Source: an uncultured bacterium
GTDB taxonomy: Bacteria > Lernaellota > Lernaellaia > Lernaellales > Lernaellaceae
Length of the DNA: 41,196 nt
NCBI GenBank assembly: GCA_964534375.1
Contig: CAZHPN010000033.1
Coordinates: 1 to 41,196 of the forward strand
Direction of reading: 5' to 3'
Shown here: positions 6,264 to 35,795 of the stretch, piece by piece
How positions within the stretch are numbered: position 1 is the stretch's first letter
Layout of the letters: each line of letters starts with the position of its first letter
Translations under genes and position numbers: made by a program
The notes under the pieces: generated by a model
Databases searched by the model: none
Told to the model about the DNA's origin: nothing
The model's input: only the letters and a program-made list of their open reading frames with translations

Positions 6264-7032
6264 AGCCCCGGAGGGGCGCAGGTAATTAGCCCAGCAATTT
6301 TATTGCTGGGACTTCGGACCGGTCCGAACTCTCCCATCCTTCCGCAACCCGTGGAGACGGGTGCAGGCGCCATTCCCGGAATTCATTCCCGGTCCCCGCC
6401 GAAGATCACAAATATCTATCGTCGAATTCGATGCCGTGTTTTCTCAAGATGGCCGCCAATTCCTCCTGAAAAGTCGTCCGTCGATGGTGCGTCTCCTGCT
6501 CGGCAATGTACGCCGTCGTCTTCGCCAATCCCGACGTGCCGACCGAAAATGCGCCGTAGCCCTCCTGCCACGCAAATCCCGCCCGAGTCGGAAACATTTC
6601 ATGAATCCACTTTGACGTTTTCGCCTTGACTGCGCGCATCATGTCCGCAAGTGAAATTTGCGGATGCAGCGAAATCAATAAGTGCACGTGATCTTCCGTG
6701 CCGCCTGCCGCCAGAAGCGCACATTTTCCTTCGCGTAAAATGCCGCCCATGAATGAAAACATATCGTCCCGGAGATCGGGCGATATCCACCGGTGGTTGT
6801 CGCGCGTGCGGAACACAACGTGAAAAAACGAAGCAGCGTAAGTGTGGCTCATCAGTGCATGTTACCCGCCTCGCCGCGATATTGAAATCGCGGCGGCGAC
6901 CGGGAATGAATTCCCGGGATGGCGCCTACACCCGTTCCACGGGTTGTGGACCACGCGCGAGAGACCCGGAGAGGCGCCCGAAACCCAGCAATGAATTGCT
7001 GGGCTAACCACCTACGCCCCGCCCACGGGGCT
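6264..7032 (-). mobile_element. Y1 transposase locus with ~140-bp imperfect inverted arms (REPtron/IS200-like)
   Basis: 6264-6400 and 6892-7032 are reverse complements, each with palindromes such as CCCAGCAAT-n-ATTGCTGGG and CCGGGAAT-GA-ATTCCCGG. Confidence 0.8.
6406..6852 (-). CDS. tnpA: IS200/IS605-family HUH (Y1) transposase, RAYT-like
   Basis: HVVFRT, DHVHLL (HUH), WQEGYGAFSV, YIAEQETHH (catalytic Tyr, YxxxQ). Confidence 0.92.
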   Translation of the reverse strand: MSHTYAASFFHVVFRTRDNHRWISPDLRDDMFSFMGGILREGKCALLAAGGTEDHVHLLISLHPQISLADMMRAVKAKTSKWIHEMFPTRAGFAWQEGYGAFSVGTSGLAKTTAYIAEQETHHRRTTFQEELAAILRKHGIEFDDRYL

Positions 7033-7210: not shown

Positions 7211-9361
7211 TCACGCCGCCGCGTTCCGGATCGCTTTCACCAACTCCTCGATCGGGCCGTCTTTGGCCAAATAACCGACGGCGCCGGCCGCGCGCATCTG
7301 CGCCGCCATGTCGGCCTCGGCGTAGGTCGACAGGCCGATCACCCGCACATCCGGCGCCTGGCACGAAATGATGCGCGTGGCGTCGATCCCGCTGACGAGC
7401 GGCATGCTGACATCCATCAGCAAGACCTGCGGCCGTAATTGCCGCGCCTTCTCGATCACTTCCCGCCCGTCGGCCGCCTCGCCGACGATCGCCAACCCCG
7501 GCGTGGTTCGGAGCAGTTCCACGATGACCTGACGAATCGCGGCGTGGTCGTCGGCGACCAGCACGCGGATCGGACCCGGCGCCGGCGATTTTGCTCTGGC
7601 GGCCGCCGGCGACGCCGCCTCGTCTGGCTCGGACTCGTCGCCCCGGGCGATCGGCGCCGTCACCGTCGCCCGCGTGCCGCGGCCCGGCGCGCTGTCGATT
7701 GCCAATTCGCCGCCGATGAATGCAAGCCGTTCGCGGATGCTTTGCAGCCCGAACGTGCTGCCGGCGTTCAGCGCGGCGTCGAAGCCGTGCCCCTCATCGG
7801 CCACGACGAGGCGCAGGTTCCCATCCGCGGTTTGCGCAACCGTCACCTGGGCGCGCTTCACGCCCGCGTGTTTCACCACGTTGAACAACAGTTCCCGCAC
7901 GGCGCGAAAGCTCACGAAGCGCAAGTCCTCGGGCAACGCGATGTCCGCTTCCGGCGCGGCCACCTCGATCTCGAGCCCATGCGTGTCGCGCATCCACTCC
8001 GCGAGCCACGTCAATGCGCCGAGCAGATTCTCATTGTGGAGCGCCGGCGGCGTGAGTTCGATCGTCAGCGAGCGGCTGGCCTCGATGGATTTGCCCAGCA
8101 GTTCGAAAAGGCGCTGGCTCTCCGCTTTGAGATCCGGCTCGGTCACACTCCGCGCGAGCGACGAGGCGCTGAACCGGGCCGCCACCAGAAACTGCTGCAA
8201 GTGGTCGTGCAGCACCTGCGCCAGCCGCTGCCGTTCACGGTCCTCGGCGTGCGCCACTTGCACCGCCAGCGTGCGCAATTGCGCCGCCCTGCGTTCCAAC
8301 TCGGCCGTGCGCTCCCCGACGCGCCGCTCGAGCGAAGCGTTGAGTTCGCGAAGTTCGTCCTCGGCCTTCCGCAAATCGGTGACATCCCCGATGGCCACGG
8401 TGCAACCGACGATCCCCTCGTGCGCATCGTGCACCGGCGCGGCGCTGTTGAGCACAAAGGCCCGGGCGCCGTCGAAGCGCTCGATCACCAGCAACTGGTT
8501 CTCGACGCGTTGCCGATTCTTCACGCACTGCGCCGCCGCCCATTCCTCCGGCTCGACGAGCCGGCCGGTGTCCGGCCACCAGGCCCGGAACGCGGCGTAA
8601 TCGGCGACGGACGCCATCGGCGGCACGGGGCCGCCCCAGACCCGCTCGAACGCGGCGTTCGCCTGCACGATCGCCCCCGCCGCGTCCACGATCGCCACGC
8701 CGACCGGCAGCGCGTTCATCACGGCTTCCAGGCGGCGCTTGGCGTTCTCGGTTTCGGCGTGCGCCTGCTCCAGTTCCGCGGTTCGCGAGCGCAGCGCCTC
8801 GGCCTCTTTGCGCGCCGTAACGTCGCTGACGGCCGCGCGGCACACGGGCGCGCCCTCGTCGTCCTTCGCGAGCGTCGCCTCGAAAGTCGCCCAGACGCGG
8901 CCCCCGTCGGCCGTGGAAAGCCGCAACTCGCAGGTCTGCGCGGCCCCGGTTTGGAAAAGCAATTCGCGATGCCCGCGATAGAGATCCAGGTCGTCGGCGA
9001 CGATGAAGTCGGTCAGTCGCCGGCCCGCCAAGGCGCCGCCGGCGACGCCAAGCAATATGCCGGCGGTGCGGTTGGATTCGACGATCAGGCCGCTTTCCGT
9101 CAGAATCAAATACCCAACCGGCGCATTCTCGAACAGATCGACATACGCGATGCGGCTGGCAGACAACTCGTCTTGCGCCCGACGCAACTCTTCGTTCTGC
9201 ATCTCCAGTTCAATTTGGGTGACCTGCATCTCATGCAGCAGCCGCTTTGCATCGGCATCTTCACTCGCTGGAGGCGCATTCGCTCTTTTTTCGAGGAGCT
9301 TTTCTTCCGCGCGATTACGCAAACCAGTGGGGTCCAAGCGGGAACGTTTGCTTTTTTCCAT
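7211..9361 (-). CDS. Hybrid sensor histidine kinase (coiled coil-PAS-PAS-HisKA_3-HATPase-REC)
   Basis: QIELEMQNEEL coil, PAS folds, ERQRLAQVLHDHLQQ H-box, ELLFNVVKHAG, DEGHGF, GLQSIRER, REC with DDH/D/K; GGAG RBS before ATG 9361. Confidence 0.92.
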   Translation of the reverse strand: MEKSKRSRLDPTGLRNRAEEKLLEKRANAPPASEDADAKRLLHEMQVTQIELEMQNEELRRAQDELSASRIAYVDLFENAPVGYLILTESGLIVESNRTAGILLGVAGGALAGRRLTDFIVADDLDLYRGHRELLFQTGAAQTCELRLSTADGGRVWATFEATLAKDDEGAPVCRAAVSDVTARKEAEALRSRTAELEQAHAETENAKRRLEAVMNALPVGVAIVDAAGAIVQANAAFERVWGGPVPPMASVADYAAFRAWWPDTGRLVEPEEWAAAQCVKNRQRVENQLLVIERFDGARAFVLNSAAPVHDAHEGIVGCTVAIGDVTDLRKAEDELRELNASLERRVGERTAELERRAAQLRTLAVQVAHAEDRERQRLAQVLHDHLQQFLVAARFSASSLARSVTEPDLKAESQRLFELLGKSIEASRSLTIELTPPALHNENLLGALTWLAEWMRDTHGLEIEVAAPEADIALPEDLRFVSFRAVRELLFNVVKHAGVKRAQVTVAQTADGNLRLVVADEGHGFDAALNAGSTFGLQSIRERLAFIGGELAIDSAPGRGTRATVTAPIARGDESEPDEAASPAAARAKSPAPGPIRVLVADDHAAIRQVIVELLRTTPGLAIVGEAADGREVIEKARQLRPQVLLMDVSMPLVSGIDATRIISCQAPDVRVIGLSTYAEADMAAQMRAAGAVGYLAKDGPIEELVKAIRNAAA

Positions 9362-9604
9362 GATGGGCAACTCCCTTTCCCGCCGGAGCCGCCCCGAACG
9401 CCGCACGTTCCGGAAAAAGCGGTTCTTGAGGTAATGGGTAAGTCGCCGGCGGCCCCGCGGCAATCTTGCTAATTTCCCGATGAATGCCGTCAGGGCGATG
9501 AAACAGAGCGCAATTTTTCCGTCACGCGACTGGCGTCGCGGCCGGCTATCCTCTAGCCCGAAAAAACCTTCCTTTTTTCGTCCGTTGCGGGTTCCAGCAA
9601 CAGC

Positions 9605-9633
9605 TTGACTTGCTGTTTTTGCAGCGGTATGAG
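9605..9633 (+). promoter_or_regulatory. Possible sigma70 promoter for kai operon
   Basis: TTGACT-17 bp-TATGAG about 60 nt upstream of kaiC ATG; weak -10. Confidence 0.3.
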
Positions 9634-9691
9634 TGAGTTCCATTCTCAAACATGCACGCAAGCGGAATTTCATTTTTTCGAGGAGCGCAAC

Positions 9692-11431
9692 ATGGCCCGG
9701 AAAAAGCCGGAAATCGATGCGGATCAGAAATCACTTCCCAAATGCCCTACTGGCATCGCCGGCCTGGATGCCGTGACCAACGGCGGGCTGCCGCGCGGCC
9801 GCCCAACGCTCGTTTGCGGCGAAGCCGGGTGCGGCAAAACGCTGCTGGCGATGGAGTTCCTCGTTCGCGGCGCGGCGATGGGCGAACCGGGCGTTTTCGT
9901 CTCTTTCGAAGAGCGGCCCGAGGACCTAATTCAGAACGTCGAATCGCTGCATTTCGACGCCGCCAAACTCGTCGCGGAGAATAAACTCGCTTTCGAGTAC
10001 GTCTACGTCGAACGCAGCGAAATCGAAGAAACCGGCGAATACGATCTCGAAGCGCTGTTCATCCGCCTCGCCGCGGCGATCGAAGCGGTGGGCGCCAAAC
10101 GCATCGCGCTCGACACGCTCGAGGCGCTGTTCGCGGGCCTTGGCAACGAAGGCATTCTGCGCGCCGAGTTGCGGCGGCTGTTCCGCTGGTTGAAGGAAAA
10201 AGGCCTGACCGCCGTGATCACCGCCGAGAGCGGCGAAAAGACGCTGACCCGCCACGGCATGGAGGAATACGTTTCCGACTGCGTGATCGTGCTCGACCAC
10301 CGCCTCGTCAACCAGATGGCCACGCGCCGCCTGCGGGTGGTCAAATACCGCGGCTCGGCGCACCAGACCAACGAATACCCGTTCCTGATCGACGACGCCG
10401 GCTTTTCCGTGCTGCCGGTCACGTCGCTGGGGCTCGATTACGCGGTTTCGAGCGAACGTGTCACGACCGGCCTGCCCCGGCTCGACACCATGCTCGGCGG
10501 CGGCGGGTATTACCGCGGTTCGAGCGTGCTGGTCTCCGGCACGTCCGGCACCGGCAAGTCTTCGATGGCCGGCTTCTTCGTCGACTCGACGTGCCGGCGG
10601 GGCGAACGCGCGCTGTATTTCGCGTTCGAAGAATCGCCGGACCAGATCATGCGGAACATGCGGTCCATCGGGCTCGACCTGAAAAAATGGGTCGATAAAG
10701 GCCTGCTTCATTTCCAGGCCGCGCGACCTACGTTGTACGGTATGGAAACGCACCTCACCGCCCTCTACAAAGCGATTCGCGATTATCAGCCCACTTGCGT
10801 AGTCGTCGACCCGATCACGAGCTTCCTGCACACGAGCGACGCGATCGAAACGAATGCCATTCTCCTGCGGCTGATCGGCCTCGCCAAAAGCGAGCAGATC
10901 ACCACGATGTTCACCAGCCTGACGCCCGGCGGCTCGGTCGCGGAAAGCACGCAGATCGGCGTTTCGTCGCTGATGGACACGTGGATCGGCATCGCCGTGC
11001 TCGAAGCCAACGGCGAGCGCAACCGCCTCATGTGGGTGCTCAAATCGCGCGGCATGGCCAATTCGAACCAGGTGCGCGAGTTCCTGATCAGCGACGACGG
11101 CATCGAACTCGCGGACGTGTACATCGGCGCGGGCACGGTCCTCACCGGGTCGGCGCGGGTGGCGCAGGCGGCGCGGGAAAAAGCGGAGGCGGAAGCGCTG
11201 AGCAACGAGTTGGCGCGCAAGAAACGCGACCTCGAAAGCGAGCGCGCGGTGACCGAGGCGAAAATTGCGGCGTTGCAGGCCAGATTTACGGCGCGCGAGT
11301 TGGAATTCCAACAATTCGCCGAGCAAGACCGGCTGCGCGAGGCTGCGGCGGCCGATGAACGCGATAAGCTCGCCGCCCTGCGGCGGGCGGACGCGCCGAC
11401 GTCAAAGCGCGGCGGGAGGAAGCCGAAATGA
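9692..11431 (+). CDS. kaiC: Circadian clock protein KaiC (double RecA domain; KaiC2-like)
   Basis: Walker A GEAGCGKT and [11 protein letters not shown] motifs, [25 protein letters not shown] phosphosite region, C-terminal coiled coil; GAGGAG RBS. Confidence 0.95.
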
Positions 11432-11784
11432 TTGCCGAGGCAACCGAAAAAGGGAAAAAGGCGAAGAGCAAGACCAAAGCCAAATCGGCCCGGCCGGCTG
11501 CACCAGACGAGGATTTCTGGGAATTGCGGCTCTACGTGGCGGGGAAAACCAGCCGCTCGGTCCTCGCGCTGGAAAACCTGAAACGGATTTGCAACGAGCG
11601 CCTCGCGGGGAAATACCGGATCGAAGTAATCGACCTGATCAAGAACCCCGCGCTGGCGAAAGGCGATCAGATTCTCGCCCTGCCGACGTTGGTGCGCCGG
11701 CTGCCCGAACCCGTGCGCAAGATCATCGGCGACTTGTCGAACGAAGAACGCGTGCTCGTGGGCCTCGACCTGCGCCCGCGGTAA
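11428..11784 (+). CDS. kaiB: KaiB protein (copy 1)
   Basis: [42 protein letters not shown] overlap with kaiC. Confidence 0.93.
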
Positions 11785-11796
11785 GGAGTTCCTACG

Positions 11797-12168
11797 ATGG
11801 CCAAGGCCGCCTCGACAGAAAAAAAGAAACTCGAAAAAGTCGTTGACGAAAGCGCGCCCGAGCAGGGCCAACCGCTGTGTTACGTCCTGCGCCTGTACGT
11901 CACGGGCATTACGCCCAACTCGCGTCGGGCGGTCGAAAATGTCCGCCGCATTTGCGAGGAGCACCTGAAAGGCCGTTATGAACTGGAAGTGATCGACATT
12001 TACCGTTATCCCGGCCTCGCCAGCGGCGAGCAAATTTTGGCGGCGCCGACGCTCATCAAAAAACTGCCTTTGCCCCTGCGGCGGCTGATCGGCGATATGT
12101 CCAACGAGGAAAAAGTGCTGTTCGGTCTGGATCTGCGCCCGGTCGCCGAATCCGGAGCGAAAAAATGA
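11797..12168 (+). CDS. kaiB: KaiB protein (copy 2)
   Basis: LRLYVTG.TPNS, LEVIDI, QILAAPTLIKKLPLPLRRLIGDMS; AAGGAG RBS. Confidence 0.93.
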   Translation: MAKAASTEKKKLEKVVDESAPEQGQPLCYVLRLYVTGITPNSRRAVENVRRICEEHLKGRYELEVIDIYRYPGLASGEQILAAPTLIKKLPLPLRRLIGDMSNEEKVLFGLDLRPVAESGAKK

Positions 12169-14258
12169 GCAAGGGCGACGGCCAACGGCGCGGCGCCGGC
12201 GACACCGCGCTTCGGGCGGAAAACGAGGAATTGCGCGCGCGTCTGGCCGAGGCGCGGGAAACGCTGCGGGCGATTCAGGAAGGCGAGGTCGACGCGCTCG
12301 TCGTCAACACGCCCGCCGGCCCGACGGTGTTTTCGCTCAAGACCGCCGACCTGCCCTACCGCGAGATCGTCGAAACGATGAACGAGGGCGCGCTGACGGT
12401 CGGCCGCGACGGCGCGATCCTATACGCCAACGACCGCTTTTTCGAGATGGTCAAAGCCGCGCCCGGCGGCGTGTTCGGCAAAACGTTCGCCGAGTTTGTG
12501 GCGGAAAAAGATCGCGAACGGCTGGCGGCGTTTCTGAGCGGCAGCGTCGATGCGCCGGCGCGCGAACGCCTCGAACTTTTGGCCGTAGACGGCTCCCGTG
12601 CGGTCGTCCAGGTTTCTTCGCGCGTCTTGCCCGAGCAAGGGCCGGCGGCCGTTTGCCTGATCCTCTCCGATGTTTCCTCGCTGGAACGGGCGCACGCCGA
12701 GATCGCCGATCGCCGCAAGCACGAAGCGGAATTGCGCGAGCAGCGCGAGTGGCTGCGGGTGACGCTGGCCAGCATCGGCGATGCGGTCCTGGCCGCCGAC
12801 ACCGAGGGGCGCATCACCTTGCTGAACCCGGTCGCGGCCGCGCTGACGGGCTGGACGGACGAAGAGGCGCGCGGACGGCCGCACGGTGAAGTCCTTCGAC
12901 TCATCGTTGAAGACACGCGCGAGCCCGGCGAGGATATCGTGGCGCGCGTGCTGCGCGAGAACAAAATCTTCATGCTCGCGAACCACTCGGCGCTGATCGC
13001 GCGCGACGGGCGCGTGATCCCGGTCGAAGACAGCGCGGCGCCGATCCGGGATGCCGCCGGGAAGACGGTGGGCGTGGTGCTGGTGTTTCACGACGTGACC
13101 GAAAAACGCCGCGCGATCGAAGCCCTCGCCGAGAGCGAGGCGCGATTCCGCCACGCCGAACAGGTCGCCAACGTCGGCCACTGGGAATGGGAGATTTCGA
13201 CGGGCGCGGTCCATTGGTCGGACCAGGTGTTTCGACAAGTGGGCGAAGAGCCCGCCTCGTTTGCGCCGACCTATGACGACCTGCTGCGGCGCATTCACTC
13301 GGACGACCGCGCGGTTTTTACGACAATCGTCGAGCGCGCGCTGGCCGACCATTTGCCGTACGAACTGGAGTTCCGCATCGTTCGTCCGGACGGAACGATC
13401 CGCGTCTTGCACGCGCGCGGCGAAGTCATTTGCGACGCCGAGGCGCGGCCGCAACGCGTGATCGGCGTCAGTCTGGACATCACGGAACGCCAGCGGGCCG
13501 AGGCGGCATTGCAGGAGATGAACGCCACGCTCGAACGGCGCGTGCAGGAGCGCACGGCCGAGTTGGAATTGCGGGCGCTGCAACTGCGGGCCCTGGCGGC
13601 GCAACTGGTGCACACCGAAGACCAGGAACGAAAACGGCTGGCGACGGTGCTGCACGATCATCTGCAACAATTGTTAGTGGCGGCGAAGTTCGGCGCTTCC
13701 TCGTTGCAGCAGGAGGTCGAGGAACCGACCCACAAAGACGCGGCGCAGCGCGTGCTCGATCTCATCGCGCAAGCGATCGACGCCAGCCGCTCGCTGACGG
13801 CGGAACTTTCGCCGCCGGTCCTGCACGATGCCGGCTTGGCGGCCGGGTTGCAGTGGCTGACCCGCTGGATGCGCGAAAAACACGGCCTGACGGTCGAGGT
13901 GACGGCCCCCGCGCAGCGGCTCCCGATGCCGGATGACTGGCGGCTGATGCTGTTCCAGGCCGCGCGGGAGCTCTTGTTCAACGTCGCGAAGCACGCGGGC
14001 GTGAACACCGCGACGGTCACGCTGACCCGCGACGGCGAGCGCTTGCGCCTGGTCGTCGCCGACCAAGGCCGCGGCTTCGACCCCGGCGCGGTCGCCGCCG
14101 CCGACGGCGGCGGCTTCGGCCTGTTCAGCGTGCAGGAGCGCCTCGCCCATCTCGGCGGCAGCGTGGAAATCGACAGCGCGCCCGGCCGCGGGACGCGCGT
14201 CGTCGTCTCGGCGCCGATTCTGCATCCGGTCGGCGCCGCGGCGGATGATGAGGGATGA
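12165..14258 (+). CDS. PAS x3 HisKA_3 sensor histidine kinase, cotranscribed with kaiCBB
   Basis: ATGA overlap with kaiB copy 2; PAS repeats, ERKRLATVLHDHLQQ, ELLFNVAKHAG, DQGRGF, GFGLFSVQER; no receiver. Confidence 0.92.
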   Translation: MSKGDGQRRGAGDTALRAENEELRARLAEARETLRAIQEGEVDALVVNTPAGPTVFSLKTADLPYREIVETMNEGALTVGRDGAILYANDRFFEMVKAAPGGVFGKTFAEFVAEKDRERLAAFLSGSVDAPARERLELLAVDGSRAVVQVSSRVLPEQGPAAVCLILSDVSSLERAHAEIADRRKHEAELREQREWLRVTLASIGDAVLAADTEGRITLLNPVAAALTGWTDEEARGRPHGEVLRLIVEDTREPGEDIVARVLRENKIFMLANHSALIARDGRVIPVEDSAAPIRDAAGKTVGVVLVFHDVTEKRRAIEALAESEARFRHAEQVANVGHWEWEISTGAVHWSDQVFRQVGEEPASFAPTYDDLLRRIHSDDRAVFTTIVERALADHLPYELEFRIVRPDGTIRVLHARGEVICDAEARPQRVIGVSLDITERQRAEAALQEMNATLERRVQERTAELELRALQLRALAAQLVHTEDQERKRLATVLHDHLQQLLVAAKFGASSLQQEVEEPTHKDAAQRVLDLIAQAIDASRSLTAELSPPVLHDAGLAAGLQWLTRWMREKHGLTVEVTAPAQRLPMPDDWRLMLFQAARELLFNVAKHAGVNTATVTLTRDGERLRLVVADQGRGFDPGAVAAADGGGFGLFSVQERLAHLGGSVEIDSAPGRGTRVVVSAPILHPVGAAADDEG

Positions 14259-14324
14259 TGGGTTATCGGTTTATCCGCAGATGACTTAGCGCTGCCTTCG
14301 GCCGCAACCAAATGATTTTTCTTT

Positions 14325-14441
14325 AGCCGCAGATTGCGCAGATTGGCGCAGATTTGCGGGCCGGGAAATCGAAATTTCGGCGGCCGAAATTTCGCCCCGG
14401 CCCGCCACGCTAATCTGCGTTCATCGGCGTAATCTGCGGTT
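14325..14441. repeat. Inverted ~9-mer arrays (CGCAGATT-type) around an internal palindrome
   Basis: agccgcagattgcgcagattggcgcagatt ... aatctgcgttcatcggcgtaatctgcggtt; GAAATTTCG-cggc-CGAAATTTC in between. Confidence 0.75.
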
Positions 14442-14647
14442 GTATTCAACTTTCCAAATTCTTCGCGCCGAGCGAAGAAATTCGCGGATAGTAGTACAGA
14501 TAGCACAGAGCTTTCTGATTTCCCATTTGATAAGTCAAGTTTCTCGAGAGGAGCGACAAGTCCGATAGAGACTGTCGACAAATTGCCCGCGCCCGCCGAC
14601 CGCCGATGGCTGCGAATTGGAAGTCTTTGGGGCGCGCAGACCGAAAT

Positions 14648-14718
14648 GTTGAATGGCGAATGGCGAATTTCGGGCGGCGTCGGCAATTCGGCATTCGCCA
14701 TTCGCCATTCGCCATTGA
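14648..14718. repeat. Inverted 7-mer arrays (GAATGGC)n / (CATTCGC)n
   Basis: gaatggcgaatggcgaat...cattcgccattcgccattcgccatt. Confidence 0.8.
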
Positions 14719-14736
14719 GCGGGCGACGAGTACGAC

Positions 14737-14780
14737 GGGCAGGCACGGGGGCCTCGGGCAGGCACGGGGCGTGCCCCTAC
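14737..14780 (-). repeat. GTAG-type REP-like palindrome with partial duplication
   Basis: Minus strand GTAGGGGCACGCCCCGTGCCTGCCC; GGGCAGGCACGGGG occurs twice. Confidence 0.6.
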
Positions 14781-14800
14781 GCCGGGCGCCGGCCACCCGG

Positions 14801-14831
14801 CTGTTCGCGGTTCGCTGTTCGCTGTTCACTG
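14801..14831. repeat. (CTGTTCG)n 7-mer array overlapping kinase stop
   Basis: ctgttcg cggttcg ctgttcg ctgttca ctg. Confidence 0.75.
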
Positions 14832-17800
14832 TGCTGCGTCGCGGATCGCCTTCAACAAGTCTTCCATCGGGCCGTCTTTGACCAGGTAACGCACGGCGCC
14901 GGCGGCGCGCATCTGCGCGGCCATGTCGGCCTGCGCATGCATAGACAGGCCAATGACGCGGACGCTGGGCATCTCGGCCAGGAGAACGCGCGTCGCGTCG
15001 ATCCCGCTCATGACCGGCATCGAGACGTCCATCAGCACGACATCGGGATTCAGCAGCCGCGCGAGGTCGAGCGCCTGCCGACCGTCTGCGGCCTCGCCCA
15101 CGACGGCGAGACTCGGCTCTTTGCGCAGCAATTCCACGAGGCCTTTGCGCACGACCGTGTGGTCGTCGGCCACGAGCACCCGAATCGCACCGGCCGCGGC
15201 CGGCGCGGGCTCGTGCGCCGTGGCGGCGGAAACCGCCGGCGACAAGGGGGGCGCCGGCAGCGGCGCGATAGGCGCGGTCAGCACGATGCGCGTGCCGGCG
15301 CCGGGAGCGCTTTCGATTTCGAGGCCGCCGTCGATGGAAGCGAGCCGCTCGCGAATATTGAACAAGCCGAAACTGCCGGGGGTGTTCCCGGCGGCCAGGG
15401 CGGCGGCGTCGAAACCCTTCCCTTGATCGGCCACGACGACCGTCAAATTCCGGCCGTCGTCGTGCGTCATCGTCACCCGCGCGCTCGTCACGCCCGCGTG
15501 CTTGGCGACGTTGAACAGCAATTCGCGAACGGCCTGGAAGGCCATCAACCGCAGGTCGTCGGGCAGATCGAAAGGCTCGTCCGGCGCCGCCACCTCCACG
15601 GTGAGGCCGTGCTTCTCGTGCATCCACCGCGCCAGCCACAGCAACCCGGCCCCCAAACCGCGGTCGTGCAAGATGGGCGGCGAAAGCTCGGCGGTGAGCG
15701 AGCGGCTGGCGTCGATCGATTGCCCAAGTAAATCCAGCACGCGCGCGGCCTCCGCGTTGAGGTCCGGCGCGGTCAGCCGATGCCGCAGCGACGAGGCGCT
15801 GAACTTCGCCGCCACCAGCAATTGCTGCAAATGGTCGTGAAGCAACGTCGCCAGGCGCTTTCGTTCACGATCTTCCGCCTGCCCCAGTTCCGCCGCGAGC
15901 GCCCGCAGTTGCGTCGCCCGCCGTTGCAATTCCGCCGTGCGTTCGCGGACGCGCTGTTCGAGCGAAACATTGACGTCGCGCAATTCGTCCTCGGCGGCGA
16001 ACTTGGACAGCGCGACGGCCAGATAATCCGCGAGCCGCTCCCATAGCGCGATGATTTCGGGAGAGAACCGGCCGGTTTGTTTGTCGTTCAACTGCAGCAG
16101 GCCCAGCGTCCGCCCGCCGGCCCGCAACCCGAGCAAAGCGACCGACTCGTAGCCCTCGCCGTTGCAGCGGTTTCGCGTGCGGGCCTGCCGATCGGCGTCG
16201 GTAGTGGTCGCCAACAACCGCGACGTGTTGTTGGACCAAAAGTCGCCGTTGGCCGTGAAGAAGGGCTGGGCCGGATCGAACCGGCCGCAAATGACGTTGC
16301 CGCACATGCATTCCAGAACCGGATCGCCCAGGCTGTCGAGAATCGGCTGCCCGTTTTCGTCGCAGGAGCAGAGATTGTTTTCCAAAAGAACGTGCTCCGG
16401 CGGGAAACCCTTGGTTTCGTAATAGGGATAATCGTGTTCGCGCCGGAGTCGGATGCCGACGGCCTCGCAACCCGATTTTTGCCGAAAGAATTCCGTGGCG
16501 GCGCGGATCAGCTCGCTCGTGCTTTTGCTCGCATTGATCAGCCGCAGGAACTCGGCGGCGGTTTCGCGCTCGGCCTCGGCGCGCTTCTGGTCGGTGATGT
16601 CGCGCGCATACAGATTCACGTATCCCCGCTCGGGAACCGGCGCCAGCAACACGGAATAGCTGCGGCCCGGCAGGTCGATTTCGTGCGCCATCGGCTGGCC
16701 GGCCGCCAGCGTTTCGGCGACCATGCGGCGCAACGCCTCCGGAACCTGCCGGCCGGCCGCGGGAACGCCCCAGTGCCGCAACATCTCCTGGCTCGCGTCG
16801 TTGCAATAGAGGATGCGGCCATCGTCGGCAAGGCGGCAAACGGGCTGCGGGTTTTCCTCCGGGAATCGCGACAAATCCTCGATCTGTTCGGCCGCGCGCT
16901 TGCGCTCGGTGATGTCCCGAACGATGGACACCGAGCCGATGATGTTCCCCGCCCCGTCGCGCACCGGGGCGGCGTTGACCTCGCGATGGCGCAGTTCGCC
17001 CGTGGCGGGCGTGCGCACAATCTCTTCCTGACCGCGGATAATTTCGCCGGCGAGAGCGCGCAGCGGCGGCGTTTCCTCGACCGGGCGCGGCGTGCCGTCG
17101 GGGCGCAGCACTTCGAGGCTCGCCGCGAACTTTTCCACATCGATGCCGCCGGCCACGCCGGCGCCGAATTCGCGCACCGCCGCCGGGTTGGCCAGCGTAA
17201 ATTGTTTATGGGAATCCGCGAACCAGACTTCGTCGCCGATGCTGTTGACCAGCGCCGAGAGCCGCTCTTTCTCGGCCTGCACGGCCGCCATCAAGCGTTG
17301 CGTCTCCTCCTCCGCCAGCTTGAGTTCGGTCCGGTTCACCGCGGCAATGCCGATGCCGGCGACGGCCCCGGCCGCGTCGCGCAACGGCTCCATGTAGAGG
17401 TCCAAGTAGATGCGTTGGCCGGCCGAGGTCAGCCACAAATTCTGCCGTACGGTCTCGCCCGCCAGCACGAGGCGCTTCGCCGCCGTCAGTTCGTCCGCCT
17501 CGTTGGGGAACAGGTCGAAATCGGTTTTGCCGATGACCTCGTCCGTGCGCCGGGTCTGCTGATTGTACGTCCAGGTGTAACGCAATTCGCGATCGAGCGT
17601 CGAAACGATCACCGGCGCAGGCGTCAACGCGAGCCGGAAGCGCTCCTCGCTCGCGCGCAAGGCGTCGGCCGCCAGCTTGCTGTCGGTGATGTCCTGCACG
17701 GTGCCGACGAAACTCGTCGCCCGCCGGCCGGCCCCTTCGCCGGCGAAGCTCGCGACCCCGTGCGCTTCGATCCAGCGCACGGCGCCGTCGGGCCGGCGGA

Positions 17801-20243
17801 TGCGGTATTCGGCGGCGTACGGCCGCGGATCGTGCGGATCCAGCGCCGCCTCGACCTTGGCCCACAGCGGCGCCAGGTCTTCCGGGTGGATAATATTCGC
17901 GAGAATTTCGTCGTTCAGCCGCTCGTAGCCGCGGACGCCGAAAATTTCTTTGTAAACGTCGTCCCAGTAGGCCATGCGCGTGAGCGGATCGTATCGCCAC
18001 CAGCCAAGATGCGCGGCGTCGAGCGCGAGTTGGCGCAATTCGACAGCGCGCTTGACCTCTTCCTCGGCGCGTTTGCGTTCGGTGATGTCGCGGTTGCTGC
18101 CGCGCGCGCCCAAATATTCCCCGTTCTCGCCGAACACGGGCTGGCAAACGTGGGCGATCCAGCGCTCGCTGCCATCCGGCCGTACGATGCGGAATTCCAC
18201 ATCGCCGGGCCGTTGCCGGTGGGTTTCTTCGGCCTGATGGCGTTGGAACGCGGGAAGGTCGTCCGGGTGAATCGTGCGGAACCACAGCTCGGGGTCGGCG
18301 AAAAACTCGGCCGGCTTGCGGCCGTACACGCTTTCGCAGGCCGGCGAAACGTACAGAAACTTTCCTTGCGGATCGAGCCAAAATTCGAAATCGAACGTGT
18401 GTTCGGCGACCGTGCGGTAGCGGAATTCCGCGTCGCGCAACGCCTCCTGAGCGCGTCGTTTCTCCGCCACGTCGTGAAAGACGACCACCACACCGATTAA
18501 CGAGCCGTCCGCGTCCCGGATCGGCGCCGCGCTGTCCTCAATGGGGATTTCGCGGCCGTCGCGGGCCAGAAGCGCCGTGTGGTTGGCCAATTGGACGATT
18601 TGCCCCTCGCGCAGGACCCGCGCGACGATGTCCTCCGCCGGTTGGCGCGTCTGCTCGTTGATGACGCGGAACAATTCGCCGATCGGCTTCCCCGCGGCCT
18701 CTTCCGGCGACCAGCCGGTCAAGGCCGCGGCCACCGGGTTCAGGAACACGACGCGGCCGTCGGCGTCCGCGGCCAGGACGGCGTCGCCGATGCTGGTCAG
18801 CGTCACGCGCAGTCGCTCTTCGCTGGCGCGCAACGCTTCCTGCGCGCGCCGCTTCTGCGTCACATCGTGAAATACAAGCACCACGCCGGCGATCTTGCCG
18901 TCGCCGTCTTTGATCGGCGCCGCGCTGTCCTCGATGGGGATCTCGCGATCGTCCGCCGTGACCAGCGCCGTGTGGTTCGCGAGCAGCACGACGCTGCCCT
19001 GGCGCAGCACGCGCGCGACGATGTCATCGGCCGGTTGGCGGGTCTGCTCGTTGATGATGCGGAAGATTTCCTGCACGGGCCGGCCTTGCGCCTCGTGCAG
19101 CCGCAACCCGGTGAGCGATTCCGCCACCGGATTGATGAAGGAAATTGCGCCCTGCGCATCGGTGGCGATGACCGCGTCGCCGATGCTCGCCAGGGTCGTC
19201 GCCCAGCGCTGCTCCTCCTGCACGTGGGCCACGTCCGTCGCTTCGGCCCACAGCGCGCGGCGCAGGCGCTCGATCACGAGGCACAGGCAAATATTGGTGG
19301 CGATGAAAGTCGCCAGCGCGAGCACATCGTTGGGGGCCGAAATGCGAAAAGTCCCAACCGGCTCGAAGACCCAATAATCGGTCGCCACCGCCGCCAGAAC
19401 GGTCGCCGCGATGCCGGGGCCGCCGCCGGCGACGGTCGCCACCAACAGCACCGCCGGGTAGACGGTGACGAACGCCGGCAGCGGGCCGAAATAGCGGACC
19501 AACCAGAGGCGCAAGCCGACGCCGATCGCCGCCGCGGCCGCGGCGAAAAGGTATTGCCAGGCGATGGTTCCCCAATTGCGGCCCGGGCGGGCGGGCTGCG
19601 CGCCGGGCCCGCCGAACCGCGTCCGGCGCATCACGACAATCGCGAAAACGGCCAGGATCAAGAGCGCGACCGGCGTCACGACGGCCGTGGTGAACAGCGT
19701 GCGTTTTGTCGCGATAGCGGCGGCGGCATTGCGCGCCGCGAGCTGTTCCCGATCGCGCGTTTCCATCTCCGCGACCACGCCGCGGATTTCATCCATGATC
19801 TGTTTGCCGCGATCGGTGCGAATCACGGCCAGGGCGGCGTCGAGCCCCGACTGCCGCCGCAGCGCAATGGTCTCGCGCAATACGGCGAGCTTGGCGTCGG
19901 CCAGATCGCGAACCCGGTGCAGGTCCGCCCGCTGGGCCGCGTCATTGCTGACCAGATTCTGCAACGAATCGAGTTCGCGCGGCAGCCGGCCGCCGGCGTC
20001 ATTGAAGGGCTCCAGGTATCGCTCTTCGCCGGTCAGGACGAAGCCGCGCTCACCGGTTTCGGCGTCCTTGAGCACGGAAAGAACGAGTTCCAGCTTCTCC
20101 ATGATCTGATGCGAACGCACGACGTCGCGATTGGCGGCGAGCAGGCGTTGCGAACTGAGGTACGAAGTGACGCTGACGGCCGACAGGAGCGCCAACACGA
20201 GGACGAAAGTGACGCCGAACGTTTTGACTCTGGCCATACTCAT
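14826..20243 (-). CDS. Large membrane hybrid histidine kinase: CHASE3-TM(DUF4118-like)-multiple PAS-Cys-rich GAF-HisKA_3-HATPase-REC
   Basis: DAETGERGFVLTG..YLEPF and GKQIMDEIR (CHASE3), TM block, about 7 PAS/PAC, LHDHLQQ H-box, ELLFNVAKHAG, C-terminal REC. Confidence 0.93.
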   Translation of the reverse strand: MSMARVKTFGVTFVLVLALLSAVSVTSYLSSQRLLAANRDVVRSHQIMEKLELVLSVLKDAETGERGFVLTGEERYLEPFNDAGGRLPRELDSLQNLVSNDAAQRADLHRVRDLADAKLAVLRETIALRRQSGLDAALAVIRTDRGKQIMDEIRGVVAEMETRDREQLAARNAAAAIATKRTLFTTAVVTPVALLILAVFAIVVMRRTRFGGPGAQPARPGRNWGTIAWQYLFAAAAAAIGVGLRLWLVRYFGPLPAFVTVYPAVLLVATVAGGGPGIAATVLAAVATDYWVFEPVGTFRISAPNDVLALATFIATNICLCLVIERLRRALWAEATDVAHVQEEQRWATTLASIGDAVIATDAQGAISFINPVAESLTGLRLHEAQGRPVQEIFRIINEQTRQPADDIVARVLRQGSVVLLANHTALVTADDREIPIEDSAAPIKDGDGKIAGVVLVFHDVTQKRRAQEALRASEERLRVTLTSIGDAVLAADADGRVVFLNPVAAALTGWSPEEAAGKPIGELFRVINEQTRQPAEDIVARVLREGQIVQLANHTALLARDGREIPIEDSAAPIRDADGSLIGVVVVFHDVAEKRRAQEALRDAEFRYRTVAEHTFDFEFWLDPQGKFLYVSPACESVYGRKPAEFFADPELWFRTIHPDDLPAFQRHQAEETHRQRPGDVEFRIVRPDGSERWIAHVCQPVFGENGEYLGARGSNRDITERKRAEEEVKRAVELRQLALDAAHLGWWRYDPLTRMAYWDDVYKEIFGVRGYERLNDEILANIIHPEDLAPLWAKVEAALDPHDPRPYAAEYRIRRPDGAVRWIEAHGVASFAGEGAGRRATSFVGTVQDITDSKLAADALRASEERFRLALTPAPVIVSTLDRELRYTWTYNQQTRRTDEVIGKTDFDLFPNEADELTAAKRLVLAGETVRQNLWLTSAGQRIYLDLYMEPLRDAAGAVAGIGIAAVNRTELKLAEEETQRLMAAVQAEKERLSALVNSIGDEVWFADSHKQFTLANPAAVREFGAGVAGGIDVEKFAASLEVLRPDGTPRPVEETPPLRALAGEIIRGQEEIVRTPATGELRHREVNAAPVRDGAGNIIGSVSIVRDITERKRAAEQIEDLSRFPEENPQPVCRLADDGRILYCNDASQEMLRHWGVPAAGRQVPEALRRMVAETLAAGQPMAHEIDLPGRSYSVLLAPVPERGYVNLYARDITDQKRAEAERETAAEFLRLINASKSTSELIRAATEFFRQKSGCEAVGIRLRREHDYPYYETKGFPPEHVLLENNLCSCDENGQPILDSLGDPVLECMCGNVICGRFDPAQPFFTANGDFWSNNTSRLLATTTDADRQARTRNRCNGEGYESVALLGLRAGGRTLGLLQLNDKQTGRFSPEIIALWERLADYLAVALSKFAAEDELRDVNVSLEQRVRERTAELQRRATQLRALAAELGQAEDRERKRLATLLHDHLQQLLVAAKFSASSLRHRLTAPDLNAEAARVLDLLGQSIDASRSLTAELSPPILHDRGLGAGLLWLARWMHEKHGLTVEVAAPDEPFDLPDDLRLMAFQAVRELLFNVAKHAGVTSARVTMTHDDGRNLTVVVADQGKGFDAAALAAGNTPGSFGLFNIRERLASIDGGLEIESAPGAGTRIVLTAPIAPLPAPPLSPAVSAATAHEPAPAAAGAIRVLVADDHTVVRKGLVELLRKEPSLAVVGEAADGRQALDLARLLNPDVVLMDVSMPVMSGIDATRVLLAEMPSVRVIGLSMHAQADMAAQMRAAGAVRYLVKDGPMEDLLKAIRDAAQ

Positions 20244-20376
20244 CTCCGGGTCATCAACTGAAGACCCCTCGCCCCGGGAAGGCCGCCCTGATGCCCGGTG
20301 AAGGCTCGGAAAAGGCGACCGTTGGCCACATTGCTACGCGAGCGGGGCGGGGCTGTCAAGACAACGGGCGGCCGGT

Positions 20377-20467
20377 CAGTGGTCAGTCGCCAGTGGCCGG
20401 TGGTCAGTGGGCAGTGAACAGTGAGCAGGGAGCAGCGAACAGCGAACAGCGAACAGCGAATAGTGCG
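20377..20467. repeat. 13-unit 7-mer array (CAGTGGT grading to CAGCGAA)
   Basis: Continuous 7-nt period; (CAGCGAA)x4 is complementary to the 14801-14831 array. Confidence 0.85.
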
Positions 20468-20821
20468 CAATCGGGAGCAAGGCGACCCGCGTGTGGCGCA
20501 GGCGCCCTCGCCTGTGCGGGCGCCGTTGCGGCGCATGCCTGCCGGTTCATTTCGCGGGGTTGTCGATGGGTTTCCAGCGGAATGCGGAGGACACCGGAGT
20601 GGGCTGACGCCGGTTCTCGAACCGCCGCATCGCTGCCCGGCGTCGCAAAAAAAGCCGCTTGCATTTATCAAGCAACGTGACGAAAATAAACACATCTCAA
20701 CGTGGATTTGACATCCGTGGCTGCGGTTGGACGCCGTTCTTTCGATTGCACTAATCCGAGCGGTCCGCTTGCGCCGATGGTCAGGCGGAGCCTCGGTTGA
20801 ACGAAGGCGGAGGATACGACA

Positions 20822-21790
20822 ATGAACGCCAAAATCGGGTTTTTGGTCGTCGGAATCACGCTGCTGGCCGCGTTTGGCTTCGCTTGGGCTGACCCGGACA
20901 GCCAAACCGGCGGAGCGGCGGAGCCGCTAGCCGCGGCGCCGTTGGCGCCGCCTCCGGGCGGCGACGGCCCGGCGCAGAACCCGGGCGACGCGCCGCCCGC
21001 CGAGGCGGCCGCCGCGCCCCCGAGTGCGCCGCCGTCGACGGACCCCGGCGCCGCTTTGCCGTCGGACCCCTCGTATCTATTCGTCGACCCCGCCCCGGCC
21101 CCCGGAGACCCCTGGTTCACCGGTTACGGCGGCGGCCCGGCGTATTACCCGGTTTACGAGCCGGTTTACTATTACGGGCCGGGTTTCTGGGCCCCCTGGT
21201 GGGATTGGTACGTGCCCCGCGTCGCCTGGGACTATTTCCCCGCCTATTATTGGCCGGACTGCGGACGCGGCTATGGCTATGCCGGGTATCCGGGATACGG
21301 CTACTCCGGATACGGCGGCAACGAGAATGTTGCGGGCGTTGTGAACAACTATTACGTCAACAACAATTACGGGTCCGGCAGCCAAGGCGCCGCGGGCGCG
21401 GGCCCGGCAGGACAGGGGATGGTGCGGCCGGGCGTCGGCGCCGGCGGCGAACCCGGCGAGCCCGCCCGCGGGGTGGCCGGAAATCCGGCCGGGACGAGAC
21501 TCGGCGTTGTGCCGGGCCAACAGAATCTCGCCAAGACGCCGGCCAATGGCGCGCCCGCAAAAAATGCAGCGATCGGGAAAGCCGTGAAACCGGCGGCGGC
21601 GGTCAACCGCACCGTGGTGAATGCGCCGCAGCGGCCTGCGGCCCCTGCCGCGTATCGCCCGAACAACGCCCCGCCCCGGCCGCCCGTGCACCCCGCGGCG
21701 AACCGCGGCATGCAAAACAACGCTCCTCGTGGCGCAGCCGCCGCGCCGCCGGTGCACAAGCGGACGACGCCGACCCCCGCCGGGAAATAG
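20822..21790 (+). CDS. Secreted Pro/Gly/Tyr-rich low-complexity protein
   Basis: Sec signal (AWA-D), Pro-Ala stretch, YYP/WW aromatic core, basic Pro-rich tail; GGAGG RBS. Confidence 0.75.
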   Translation: MNAKIGFLVVGITLLAAFGFAWADPDSQTGGAAEPLAAAPLAPPPGGDGPAQNPGDAPPAEAAAAPPSAPPSTDPGAALPSDPSYLFVDPAPAPGDPWFTGYGGGPAYYPVYEPVYYYGPGFWAPWWDWYVPRVAWDYFPAYYWPDCGRGYGYAGYPGYGYSGYGGNENVAGVVNNYYVNNNYGSGSQGAAGAGPAGQGMVRPGVGAGGEPGEPARGVAGNPAGTRLGVVPGQQNLAKTPANGAPAKNAAIGKAVKPAAAVNRTVVNAPQRPAAPAAYRPNNAPPRPPVHPAANRGMQNNAPRGAAAAPPVHKRTTPTPAGK

Positions 21791-21855
21791 GGCGGGACCG
21801 CACAGCCTCTTCCAATCCGCTCAGAAACTCGCGGGCTCGGCGAGGCCGCGCGACG

Positions 21856-22275
21856 TCACAGCCGCGCCCGGCCGCGAATGGCGGCGATAACGTCGTCGGC
21901 CGGGCCGTCCATTTCGAGGTACGCGACGGCGCCGGCGGCGCGCATGTCGTCGCCCACGTCGGCGCGGCTGTGCATGGAAAGCCCGATGATCGGCACATGC
22001 GGCATTTGCGCGGCGATGAGCTTGGTGGCCGCGATGCCGTTCATTCGCGGCATGTTGACGTCCATCAAGATGACATCCGGATTCAACAGGCGAATCTGGT
22101 CGAGCGCTTGCTGCCCGTCGCCGGCCTGGCCGACGACCTCGATGTCGCGCTCTTGTTCGAGACGCCGCGACAAGGCCTGGCGCACCACCGCCGAATCGTC
22201 CACTAGAAGGACGCGGATGCGCGGCGAGCCGCAAACGCGTTTGGACATACCCTGATTTTGCTGCTGCTCCTGCAT
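21856..22275 (-). CDS. Stand-alone NarL-type receiver domain protein (conserved Lys replaced)
   Basis: RVLLVDD, PDVILMDVNMPRMNG, IGLSMH; YLEMDGP instead of YLxKDGP. Confidence 0.85.
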   Translation of the reverse strand: MQEQQQNQGMSKRVCGSPRIRVLLVDDSAVVRQALSRRLEQERDIEVVGQAGDGQQALDQIRLLNPDVILMDVNMPRMNGIAATKLIAAQMPHVPIIGLSMHSRADVGDDMRAAGAVAYLEMDGPADDVIAAIRGRARL

Positions 22276-22594
22276 AAAATTCCCCCTGCCAAAGCCTGCG
22301 AATTCTTGCAACTACAATCAGAACTTATATCGCCGCCGCGGACGGCGCAGTCGGGGATTTCCCGGTATTGCCGGGCGAATTCCCGCGCGCCGCGCCCGCT
22401 TTTCGCGACTTGGGGTTTTTTGCGCGCCGGCGCGGGGGACGCCCCGATACACGCTCCGCCGCCGCATGCCTACGGTTGATTTGGGTGGCGCTTTCGGTCG
22501 AAATTTCAGCAATTCGTCAGGCAGGCGGGCGGCCGCACGCGCAACACTCGCAAAACGTAAATTATGACATCATTTCGGAAACGGAGGGGGACAA

Positions 22595-22840
22595 ATGGAC
22601 GTGCCGCACGAACAAACACAGCGTGATCTCGATGGAAAATCGGCGAAAACAATGACTTGCCCCGTTTGCAAGGGCGCCGGCGTCATCCGGCTGGCGACCG
22701 CGGAGGCGTTGCGCTGGAACGAACGCCCGATCTTGCGGCCCGAGCACCGGCCCGGATTCGTCGACCAACCGTGCTGGGCGTGCGACGGCGACGCGCGGCT
22801 GCCGGTCGTCGACTACGTGCCGCGCGTACCGACGTCGTAA
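22595..22840 (+). CDS. Small zinc-ribbon protein (two CxxCxG motifs)
   Basis: CPVCKGAG and CWACDGD; strong GGAGGGGG RBS. Confidence 0.7.
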   Translation: MDVPHEQTQRDLDGKSAKTMTCPVCKGAGVIRLATAEALRWNERPILRPEHRPGFVDQPCWACDGDARLPVVDYVPRVPTS

Positions 22841-22888
22841 GTCGGCGTCGCCCCGCGACGTGACCGTTTTTTAAGCAGCCGAATCACA

Positions 22889-23031
22889 TGTAAGAGCACC
22901 CCCCGCCTTCGCGGGGGGTCTCTTCTGGGTGCGATCCGTTAGATCGCGCCTGGAAAGGCGCCAAATCGTCTGTAAGAGCACCCTTCTGGGTGCGATCCGT
23001 TAGATCGCGCCTGGAAAGGCGCTCTTACAGA
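22889..23031. repeat. Duplicated structured intergenic element (40-bp exact direct repeat; second unit folds as a 4-way junction)
   Basis: CTTCTGGGTGCGATCCGTTAGATCGCGCCTGGAAAGGCGC at 22922-22961 and 22983-23022; TCTGTAAGAGC/GCTCTTACAGA closing stem. Confidence 0.85.
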
Positions 23032-23087
23032 GGAAAGAAATCGCTCCTGGATATGCGCTCGTAAAAGAACAAGTGGATCAATCCGCG

Positions 23088-23519
23088 TTAGAAAAACATG
23101 TGCGGCACGTGGGCGTGCCCGGCGCCGGCGCGCACGGCGGCGACAATCGCCTCCACCGGTCCGTCTTTGACCAGGTAGGCCATGGCGCCCGCGTCGCGCA
23201 TCGCCCGGGCCATGTCGGCCCGGTTGTGCATCGAAAGGCCGACCACGGCTACCCGCGGCATTTCCGCCCGGATCGCGCGCGTCGCATCCAGCCCGTTCAT
23301 CCGCGGCATCGTCACATCCATAATGACCACGTCCGGTTGGAGCAGGCGCGCCTGCTCGATAGCTTGCTGGCCGTCCGCCGCTTCGCCGATCACCTCCATA
23401 TCGAGCTCTTTATCGATCAGCGCCGACAACGTTTGACGCACAATCGCGTGGTCGTCGGCGACCAGGACGCGAATGCGCCAAGAATCGCGATCCATCGCGA
23501 CCGGATTTTGCGCGGGCAT
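23088..23519 (-). CDS. Stand-alone NarL-type receiver domain protein
   Basis: [44 protein letters not shown]. Confidence 0.88.
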
Positions 23520-26581: not shown

Positions 26582-26621
26582 CAGCCACCTCCGCCGCTTA
26601 AACCCGGGACCGGCCGCCGGT

Positions 26622-27656: not shown

Positions 27657-27804
27657 GATGCCGCCCGTTGACTTTCCGACTCATTTGCGATGTTCGAAAG
27701 TATAGTGCCCGCGCCTCGCGCCACGCAACTCCCGCCGACACGGCGCAAAATCGACTTTCGAGCCGGCGGGCCGGCGCATCCGTCTCGCGGCGGCGATGCG
27801 GCGC

Positions 27805-29766: not shown

Positions 29767-29822
29767 GATTTTGCCTCCATTTCTGAATTCCGCACTCCGC
29801 ATTCGCCGCCCCACCCTCGCTC

Positions 29823-30866: not shown

Positions 30867-31232
30867 CGTGTTACCTCCCTCGCGCCCGGCTTTCGGACAT
30901 TCGATCAGAGGCACCGGAACGCGCTTGTTCGCCGAAAATATGCAGGTCCAAAGATTGGTCTCAGACATATGCCGGCCGGCCGCTTCTGTCAAGGCGCCCC
31001 TACTGGAGGACATACCCACTCGTTAACGCGGCCCGTTAAATGACAGTAGGACTGCATCTGTGAAACGGCGCGAACACGACCGTCCGCGAACACAACCTCG
31101 CCGCGCGCGGTACGCGGCGCCAGCGGCCGTTTCGTCGATAGAAAAACAACGGCGCAAACGACGGGCGACGAAGACGCCCCCGGGCGACTTTCGCAAATCT
31201 CGTCGCCGCGATATAAATGCGCCGGAGCAAAA

Positions 31233-35771: not shown

Positions 35772-35795
35772 CGATCCTTCTTGGCGACCGGCCGG

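Follow-up and report, generated by a model that had tools for sequence, protein, structure and literature searches.

A KaiA-free kaiC-kaiB-kaiB-kinase cassette in an uncultured Lernaellaceae bacterium and its possible connection to neighbouring HisKA_3 kinases and receivers

Does a kaiC gene followed by two kaiB genes and a PAS kinase form a timer that works without KaiA, and do the large kinases and the receivers encoded around it belong to the same circuit? The question is raised by contig CAZHPN010000033.1 (assembly GCA_964534375.1) of an uncultured Lernaellaceae bacterium. The window analyzed here is this entire contig of 41,196 bp (C33), part of a genome of 6.3 Mb in 381 contigs that is 94% complete. 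The original prediction for this DNA described a kaiC-kaiB-kaiB-kinase module wired into a dedicated HisKA_3 phosphorelay island. The locus is a real, intact, and ordinary member of a known, biochemically little-studied cassette. It is probably one copy of a widespread type of Kai cassette without KaiA, the type of Rhodobacter sphaeroides and Rhodopseudomonas palustris, and would serve as a timer or energy-state module with the kinase HK2 as its readout; the kinases and receivers around this cassette may be linked with it. The timer module of the original prediction therefore stands, and the dedicated island finds little backing.

The kai operon and the type of its KaiC

The core of the locus is a four-gene operon, kaiC-kaiB1-kaiB2-HK2. 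The translational coupling predicted for these genes is confirmed by two ATGA overlaps read directly in the sequence, one between the kaiC stop and the kaiB1 start (11428) and one between the kaiB2 stop and the HK2 start (12165); kaiB2 is preceded by AAGGAG. The kaiC open frame spans 9605–11431 on the plus strand, and the start of the gene is most likely the ATG at 9692, which has GAGGAG in front of it and would yield a protein of 579 amino acids. In a promoter and terminator scan of 9200–15000, sites were no more numerous than in shuffled sequence.

KaiC can be assigned by sequence to the Rhodobacter (kaiC2) type with a C-terminal, putatively coiled-coil tail, since its residues 15–564 align end to end with residues 5–554 of R. 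sphaeroides KaiC (PDB 8DBA; 644 bits vs. approximately 325 bits for the cyanobacterial KaiC match), tail included, and since its phosphosites are two serines. The tail comprises approximately 90 amino acids, and the alignment with 8DBA runs through it as far as residue 554 of that structure. The Ser-Ser pair, S425/S426 (GVSSLMD), occupies the place of Ser-Thr in CII, and the phosphomimetic structure 8FWI (S413E/S414E) differs from 8DBA exactly at these two columns. Both Walker A motifs (GEAGCGKT, residues 43–50; GTSGTGKS, 283–290), both FEE motifs (72–74 and 312–314), and S425/S426 are invariant among 23 KaiC homologs. The nearest homologs, 570–590 amino acids long, come from many phyla, with a best identity of 64%. 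According to the accessible text of Pitsawong et al. (2023; PMC10076222), a tail of approximately 50 residues and Ser-Ser sites in the kaiC2 subgroup are tied to KaiA-independent autophosphorylation, and the system behaves as an hourglass reset by the ATP:ADP ratio, with KaiB driving dephosphorylation when the ratio is low.

The statement that neither kaiA nor SasA is recognizable here agrees with our searches. A search of the genome (94% complete) for the KaiA family (PF07688) retrieved nothing at E ≤ 1, and no SasA-like fusion of KaiB to a kinase was found, all three PF07689 matches in the genome falling in small open frames of 127–138 amino acids. A second Kai pair is present in the same genome, on contig C80 (22.8–24.6 kb, minus strand; L010:10806-12613). 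Its KaiC, of 504 amino acids, is 38% identical to the KaiC of the window and keeps the Ser-Ser sites (GFSSLVD) without a coiled-coil tail; its KaiB, of 98 amino acids, is a weak match (39.6 bits), overlaps the KaiC stop by 4 nt, and has no helix+PAS gene behind it.

Spread of the cassette, the two KaiB proteins, and the helix+PAS module

We surveyed 80 related loci from named genomes, searching them by tblastn with the proteins of the window. Two kaiB genes lie directly behind kaiC in 41 loci, one in 33 (several of these ending at a contig edge within approximately 150 nt), and three in one; the five loci in which no kaiB of at least 70 amino acids was found are all at contig ends. The copies occur in metagenome-assembled genomes (MAGs) labelled as more than 10 phyla, archaea included; KaiA-free Kai systems are widespread. 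According to Pfam, the gene behind the last kaiB encodes a HisKA_3 kinase in 23 of 62 loci, a HisKA kinase in 14 (9 with a receiver), a HisKA_2 kinase in three, a kinase with an unrecognized dimerization and histidine phosphotransfer (DHp) domain in two, a GGDEF-EAL protein in three (L049, L050, L113), an HD_5 protein in one, and a Sigma-54 activator in one; in 13 it is PAS-only or has no recognized output, and in two it is unrelated (OmpA, MlaE). The operon type is conserved across the survey, while the output class varies, HisKA_3 being one of several. The next gene in HisKA_3-output loci encodes either a REC-GerE protein (L064, L087, L104) or a receiver-only protein (L067, L078, L080), and a single-domain receiver as a Kai output therefore has precedent. 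Together, the full-length match to R. sphaeroides KaiC and the conservation of the type in 80 loci support well the prediction that KaiB and KaiC form a timer or energy-state module here, without KaiA and with a PAS kinase as its output.

The two KaiB proteins differ in their closest solved structures, KaiB1 matching best R. sphaeroides KaiB (8FWJ_M, 101 bits) and KaiB2 Thermosynechococcus elongatus KaiB (2QKE, 95.6 bits). A quick maximum-likelihood tree of 120 KaiB rows, a few of them with untidy ends, is divided by a branch with 99% support in the Shimodaira–Hasegawa-like approximate likelihood-ratio test (SH-aLRT). On one side stand 72 rows, comprising all 42 first-position proteins, 28 single KaiBs, and two others, with kaiB1 among them; on the other side stand 48 rows, comprising all 42 second-position proteins, five singles, and one other, with kaiB2 among them. 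The tree thus places kaiB1 and kaiB2 in two old paralog clades kept in a fixed order. In KaiB1 and KaiB2 alike, Gly and Asp are retained at the positions aligned with G89 and D91 of T. elongatus KaiB, which are linked to fold switching in the accessible part of an earlier report (PMC5520375).

HK2 belongs to the HisKA_3 class (PF07730, 29.6 bits with a cut-off of 24; PF02518, 53.7 bits) and contains the motifs LHDHLQQ, with His497, NVAKHA, DQGRGF, and FGL. Its residues ~16–180, within an N-terminal helix+PAS module, match the start of the gene behind kaiB in 62 of the 80 loci. The consensus of the module over 63 rows is L..EN..LR.RL.EAEETL.AIR.GEVDA.VV....G..VYTL.GAD.PYR.LVE.M.EGA.TL, in which G40, D43, Y65, and N89 are invariant. 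Within its own genome the module is unique, HK2 reaching 193 bits (single domain) vs. 65 bits for the next best match, a generic PAS domain. A profile scan was extended to 201 genomes, which are related to differing degrees, so that co-occurrence of module and kaiB among them is to be taken as a pattern and not as a statistic. HK2 scored 197.9 bits, and whole-profile matches of at least 158 bits occurred in four genomes (G000, which is the genome studied here, G075, G099, and G102), in each on the strand of kaiB and immediately downstream of it. Of the 201 genomes, 13 were found to have KaiB, and no match of at least 158 bits occurred in the 188 genomes without it. What accompanies kaiB is this specific N-terminal module rather than one kind of kinase.

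From these observations we infer the following biochemistry, docking, and phosphotransfer targets. By homology to R. sphaeroides, the C-terminal coiled coil would serve KaiC assembly, S425/S426 would be autophosphorylated with no need of KaiA, and KaiB bound to the CI ring would accelerate ATP hydrolysis and dephosphorylation once the ATP:ADP ratio falls. Because KaiB action would depend on this fall, the outcome would be an hourglass or energy-state timer rather than a free-running clock. HK2 would read the Kai state, with the helix+PAS module most likely docking on KaiB, or else on its complex with KaiC, and gating the HisKA_3 autokinase (His497). The module is the most likely docking part because its coding sequence always comes next after kaiB, irrespective of the output, and because KidA's PAS domains at the N terminus can bind fold-switched KaiB. 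HK2 carries no receiver and is followed by no response-regulator gene; its most likely phosphoacceptors would be receiver domains of the NarL type in its own lineage-specific family, and the nearest candidates are the orphan receivers REC2 and REC1. The predicted complex of KaiB2 (residues 25–120) with the HK2 module (residues 1–190), built from separate alignments, scored 0.23 vs. a mark of 0.32 and is counted neither way.

Several observations weigh against a KaiA-free timer read out by HK2. AlphaFold2 models of KaiB2 and KaiB1 from clade-specific alignments reached a predicted local distance difference test (pLDDT) score of only 51 and 56, respectively, too low to assign a fold to either protein. 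A weak full-length module match (51 bits) is encoded in a genome in which KaiB was not found (G069, contig C336). The module accompanies a KaiB1-type protein alone in 21 loci and a KaiB2-type protein alone in five, and since it co-occurs with either type alone, co-occurrence does not seem to fix its contact partner as KaiB1, KaiB2, or KaiC. KaiB was found in none of seven same-family and none of nine same-class genomes, and a KaiC ortholog in none of these except for a 47-amino-acid KaiC start at a contig end in a same-family genome (G006). Given this lack in close relatives, the cassette is unlikely to have a housekeeping role in the lineage. The KaiBC proteins of Legionella, according to a title in a reference list, are reportedly linked to stress response rather than to timing.

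An alternative, which we regard as less likely than not, is that the cassette does not keep time at all but acts as a switch for stress or energy state, with KaiC ATPase activity and phosphorylation simply reporting nucleotide status to HK2 and no useful delay on the scale of hours. The host is apparently an uncultured heterotroph (the housekeeping protein GcvPB of the window has its closest matches, at 75–78% identity, in MAGs labelled Myxococcales and Candidatus Lernaella), and the cassette also occurs in MAGs of methanogens, Bacteroidota, and others whose habitats we assume to be dark. Even the R. sphaeroides system, as described in the accessible text, resets only by an external change in the ATP:ADP ratio (PMC10076222). 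However, nothing required for the slow phosphorylation cycle is missing, since the two Walker A motifs, the two catalytic Glu pairs, the Ser-Ser sites, and the tail are all retained, and kaiC confers a fitness benefit on R. palustris under light-dark cycles in the part of that report available to us (PMC4794148). The switch departs from a timer or energy-state module read out by HK2 in degree, not in kind.

Kinases and receivers around the operon

The features of the window are collected in Table 1. The predicted flanking hybrid kinases, divergent HK1 and convergent HK3, are confirmed by their domain orders, assigned from Pfam matches. The similarity claimed for the three transmitters amounts to 58–67% mutual identity among HK1, HK2, and HK3, and an alignment of the four nearby receivers agrees with the motifs quoted for them. 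HK1 has an open frame reaching 9673 (7211–9673, minus strand), of which the first 104 residues are Arg-rich, and for this reason its start is probably the Met of MEKSKR near 9361.

Table 1. Features of the 41,196-bp window.
Feature	Position	Strand	Product or domain order	Basis
IS200-type Y1 transposase gene, just past the 3' end of HK1	6406..6852	-		PF01797, 89 bits
HK1, divergent hybrid kinase	7211..9361	-	PAS-PAS-HisKA_3-HATPase_c-REC	Pfam and translation
kaiC	9692..11431	+	579 aa, two KaiC domains	PF06745, 369 bits, two stretches
kaiB1	11428..11784	+	118 aa	PF07689, 91.3 bits (cut-off 27)
kaiB2	11797..12168	+	123 aa	PF07689, 85.5 bits (cut-off 27)
HK2	12165..14258	+	697 aa, PAS-PAS-HisKA_3-HATPase_c, no REC	Pfam
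HK2 N-terminal helix+PAS module	12165..12734	+	residues 1-190	alignment to genes behind kaiB
Arrays of tandem heptamers, (AATGGCG)n, (GCTGTTC)n/(GAACAGC)n	14645..14716, 14800..14832, 20412..20463		hairpin-forming, inverted repeats bracketing HK3	
HK3, convergent hybrid kinase	14826..20243	-	1805 aa, CHASE3-DUF4118-PAS x5-GAF-HisKA_3-HATPase_c-REC	Pfam
Open reading frame between HK3 and the receivers	20822..21790	+	322 aa, signal-like start, Pro/Ala/Gly/Tyr-rich body	no family match
REC1, receiver-only	21856..22248 (open frame to 22311)	-	130 aa	PF00072, 85 bits
Open reading frame	22595..22840	+	81 aa, two CxxC pairs	no family match
REC2, receiver-only	23088..23519 (open frame to 23663)	-	143 aa	PF00072, 93 bits
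Five genes with FGE-sulfatase domains, interspersed with an arylsulfotransferase-like gene and an Lcl_C gene	24731..39532	-	FGE-sulfatase domain duplicated in two	PF03781

The more far-reaching proposal is that all 16 kb act as a single dedicated relay, in which HK1, HK2, and HK3 feed four local receivers and merge time or energy state with the environment; we regard this as rather doubtful. In its favor, three transmitters of the family are encoded within 8 kb, vs. 22 matches found by tblastn in 6.3 Mb (23 by Pfam HisKA_3), and the receivers have 37–42 matches. The motifs taken as a sign of a dedicated island are thus a genome-wide family trait. In a FastTree phylogeny shown, like that of the receivers, without support values, the transmitters divide into three classical NarX-like kinases and 19 family members. 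HK1, HK2, and HK3 fall into one eight-member subclade without being sisters, HK1 grouping with a kinase on contig C215, HK3 with kinases on C107 and C76, and HK2 standing alone. The DHp helices of HK2 and HK3 are near-identical and the two kinases have a PAS domain in common, which fits a shared relay, but every kinase and receiver of the window has an equal or closer paralog on another contig (HK3/C107, 76%, and 82.5% for the receiver; HK2/C107, 68%; HK1/C215, 60%; REC2/C31, 65%). Moreover, C215, C107, and C76 each carry two family kinases within 3–8 kb and no kai genes.

The position of the receivers speaks more for a local connection. Thirteen of the 19 family kinases have their own receiver, HK2 not among them. 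The family clade has only four orphan receivers in the genome, of which REC1 and REC2 lie 7.6 and 8.8 kb from HK2; on C215, likewise, a receiver-less family kinase adjoins an orphan receiver. REC1 groups with REC2 and with the receiver of a hybrid kinase on C31. REC2 keeps all conserved receiver residues, whereas REC1 keeps Asp63 and the acidic pair but has Met in place of the conserved Lys (YLEMDG vs. YLVKDG in the other three), which counts against the relay, and it may be an atypical receiver. No classical NarX-NarL pair is found here, as the eight PF00196 matches of the genome are all on other contigs, and the local receivers have no output domain. Against a single relay it must also be said that HK1, HK3, REC1, and REC2 form separate transcription units on the strand opposite to the kai operon and that the argument from co-location is post hoc.

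The expectation that flanking kinases accompany kai genes in relatives is borne out for kinases of any type but not for the arrangement seen here. A divergent HisKA_3 transmitter upstream was found in none of 56 loci with at least 5 kb of upstream sequence (same-strand, 6 of 56), and a second one downstream in 2 of 45 loci with at least 8 kb of downstream sequence (L088 and L104, the latter convergent). The neighbor upstream of the KaiC start in G006 is a tetratricopeptide repeat (TPR) protein and not a kinase. Nevertheless, the density of histidine kinases is approximately fourfold higher in the 2.5 kb next to kai operons than at greater distance: by phmmer, kinases of any type number 0.84 (upstream) and 1.0 (downstream) per 10 kb within 2.5 kb, vs. 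0–0.26 at 2.5–10 kb, although some of the nearest kinases follow a PAS-only gene and are hence part of the cassette itself. A parallel favoring a relay is a Nitrospira MAG (L088), in which hybrid HisKA_3 kinases of 1269 and 1451 amino acids lie on either side of the kai operon.

That Nitrospira locus (L088:5897-18425) consists of kaiC-kaiB-kaiB and a PAS-HisKA_3-REC kinase, with a large kinase on either side, all on the same strand. The first of these has the order DUF4118-PAS-GAF-HisKA_3-REC, and the second combines a HisKA kinase core and a HisKA_3 kinase core with two receivers. An apparent KaiB2-kinase fusion in this locus was rejected on account of a stop at 12150-12152.

A more elaborate arrangement, which we consider quite unlikely, is an integration node in which a Kai-gated HK2, an HK1 with cytoplasmic PAS input, and an HK3 with periplasmic CHASE3 input, all of one DHp specificity, would converge on REC2 and the Lys-less REC1, the second KaiB acting as an adaptor that passes the KaiC state to the PAS module. 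If true, elapsed time or energy state would be combined with external cues before the cell acts. Independently of this, a receiver-less Kai-linked kinase beside two orphan receivers offers a simple setting for an output-wiring experiment.

It is very improbable that the cassette arrived by recent transfer and is carried along without function, as its absence from 15 of the 16 same-family or same-class genomes, the distance of its KaiC homologs and their scatter over many phyla, and the transposase gene beside HK1 might suggest, because all four frames are intact, the catalytic residues are invariant, the genes are translationally coupled, and the operon has the same G+C content (0.63–0.67) as its flanks. 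The heptamer arrays bracketing HK3 were considered as element ends that would mark HK3 as a cassette; this was rejected, since they recur on 19–40 contigs. With 297 arrays of at least three heptamer copies in the genome, they look like a genome-wide intergenic repeat family.

Comparison with known Kai systems

The cassette type is already in print, in papers from 2011, 2016, and 2023, and the locus adds nothing categorically new to it. What the survey sharpens are two testable points: the helix+PAS module as a unit traveling with kaiB, and the two old KaiB paralogs in a fixed order. In the literature searched, which left subscription journals and supplements outside, we found neither a definition of two KaiB clades or of a helix+PAS module nor a described tandem-kaiB system beyond the passing mention of "kaiCBB", a name that appears once in the accessible text of a Thiodictyon genome paper.

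Compared with the cyanobacterial KaiABC oscillator, the present genome differs in that KaiA and a SasA-type kinase were not found in it. The SasA-RpaA output resembles the proposed HK2 readout in that a histidine kinase reads the KaiC state through an N-terminal docking domain, as HK2 would do. This domain is KaiB-like and joined to a HisKA transmitter in SasA, whereas HK2 combines the helix+PAS module with a HisKA_3 transmitter. Another point of comparison is the multi-PAS protein KidA of Synechococcus elongatus, whose N-terminal PAS domains bind fold-switched KaiB and whose GGDEF-EAL output recurs in three of the surveyed loci (those named above); in the accessible text it is encoded outside the kai operon and acts on the KaiABC oscillator (PMC9478674).

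The kaiC-kaiB-PAS/histidine kinase operon of R. palustris (Ma et al., 2016; PMC4794148) agrees with the present operon in gene order, in strand, and in having a signaling gene right behind kaiB, and the genomic context class "kaiC-kaiB plus HK or GGDEF/EAL" of De Luca et al. (2011; PMC3164672) is reproduced by our 80 loci. In the accessible parts of these two papers, the two KaiB clades are not separated and the helix+PAS module is not defined.

The closest studied relative is the R. sphaeroides KaiBC hourglass (8DBA, 8FWI, 8FWJ; PMC10076222). The present locus differs from it in an additional KaiB, which belongs to a separate clade and has no counterpart in the studied system, in the HisKA_3 class of its kinase, and in a host that, as far as the data go, is not a phototroph. 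The two systems share the absence of KaiA, a PAS kinase in the operon, a KaiC that is collinear over residues 15–564 with the same tail and Ser-Ser sites, and a KaiB that is the best solved match of KaiB1.

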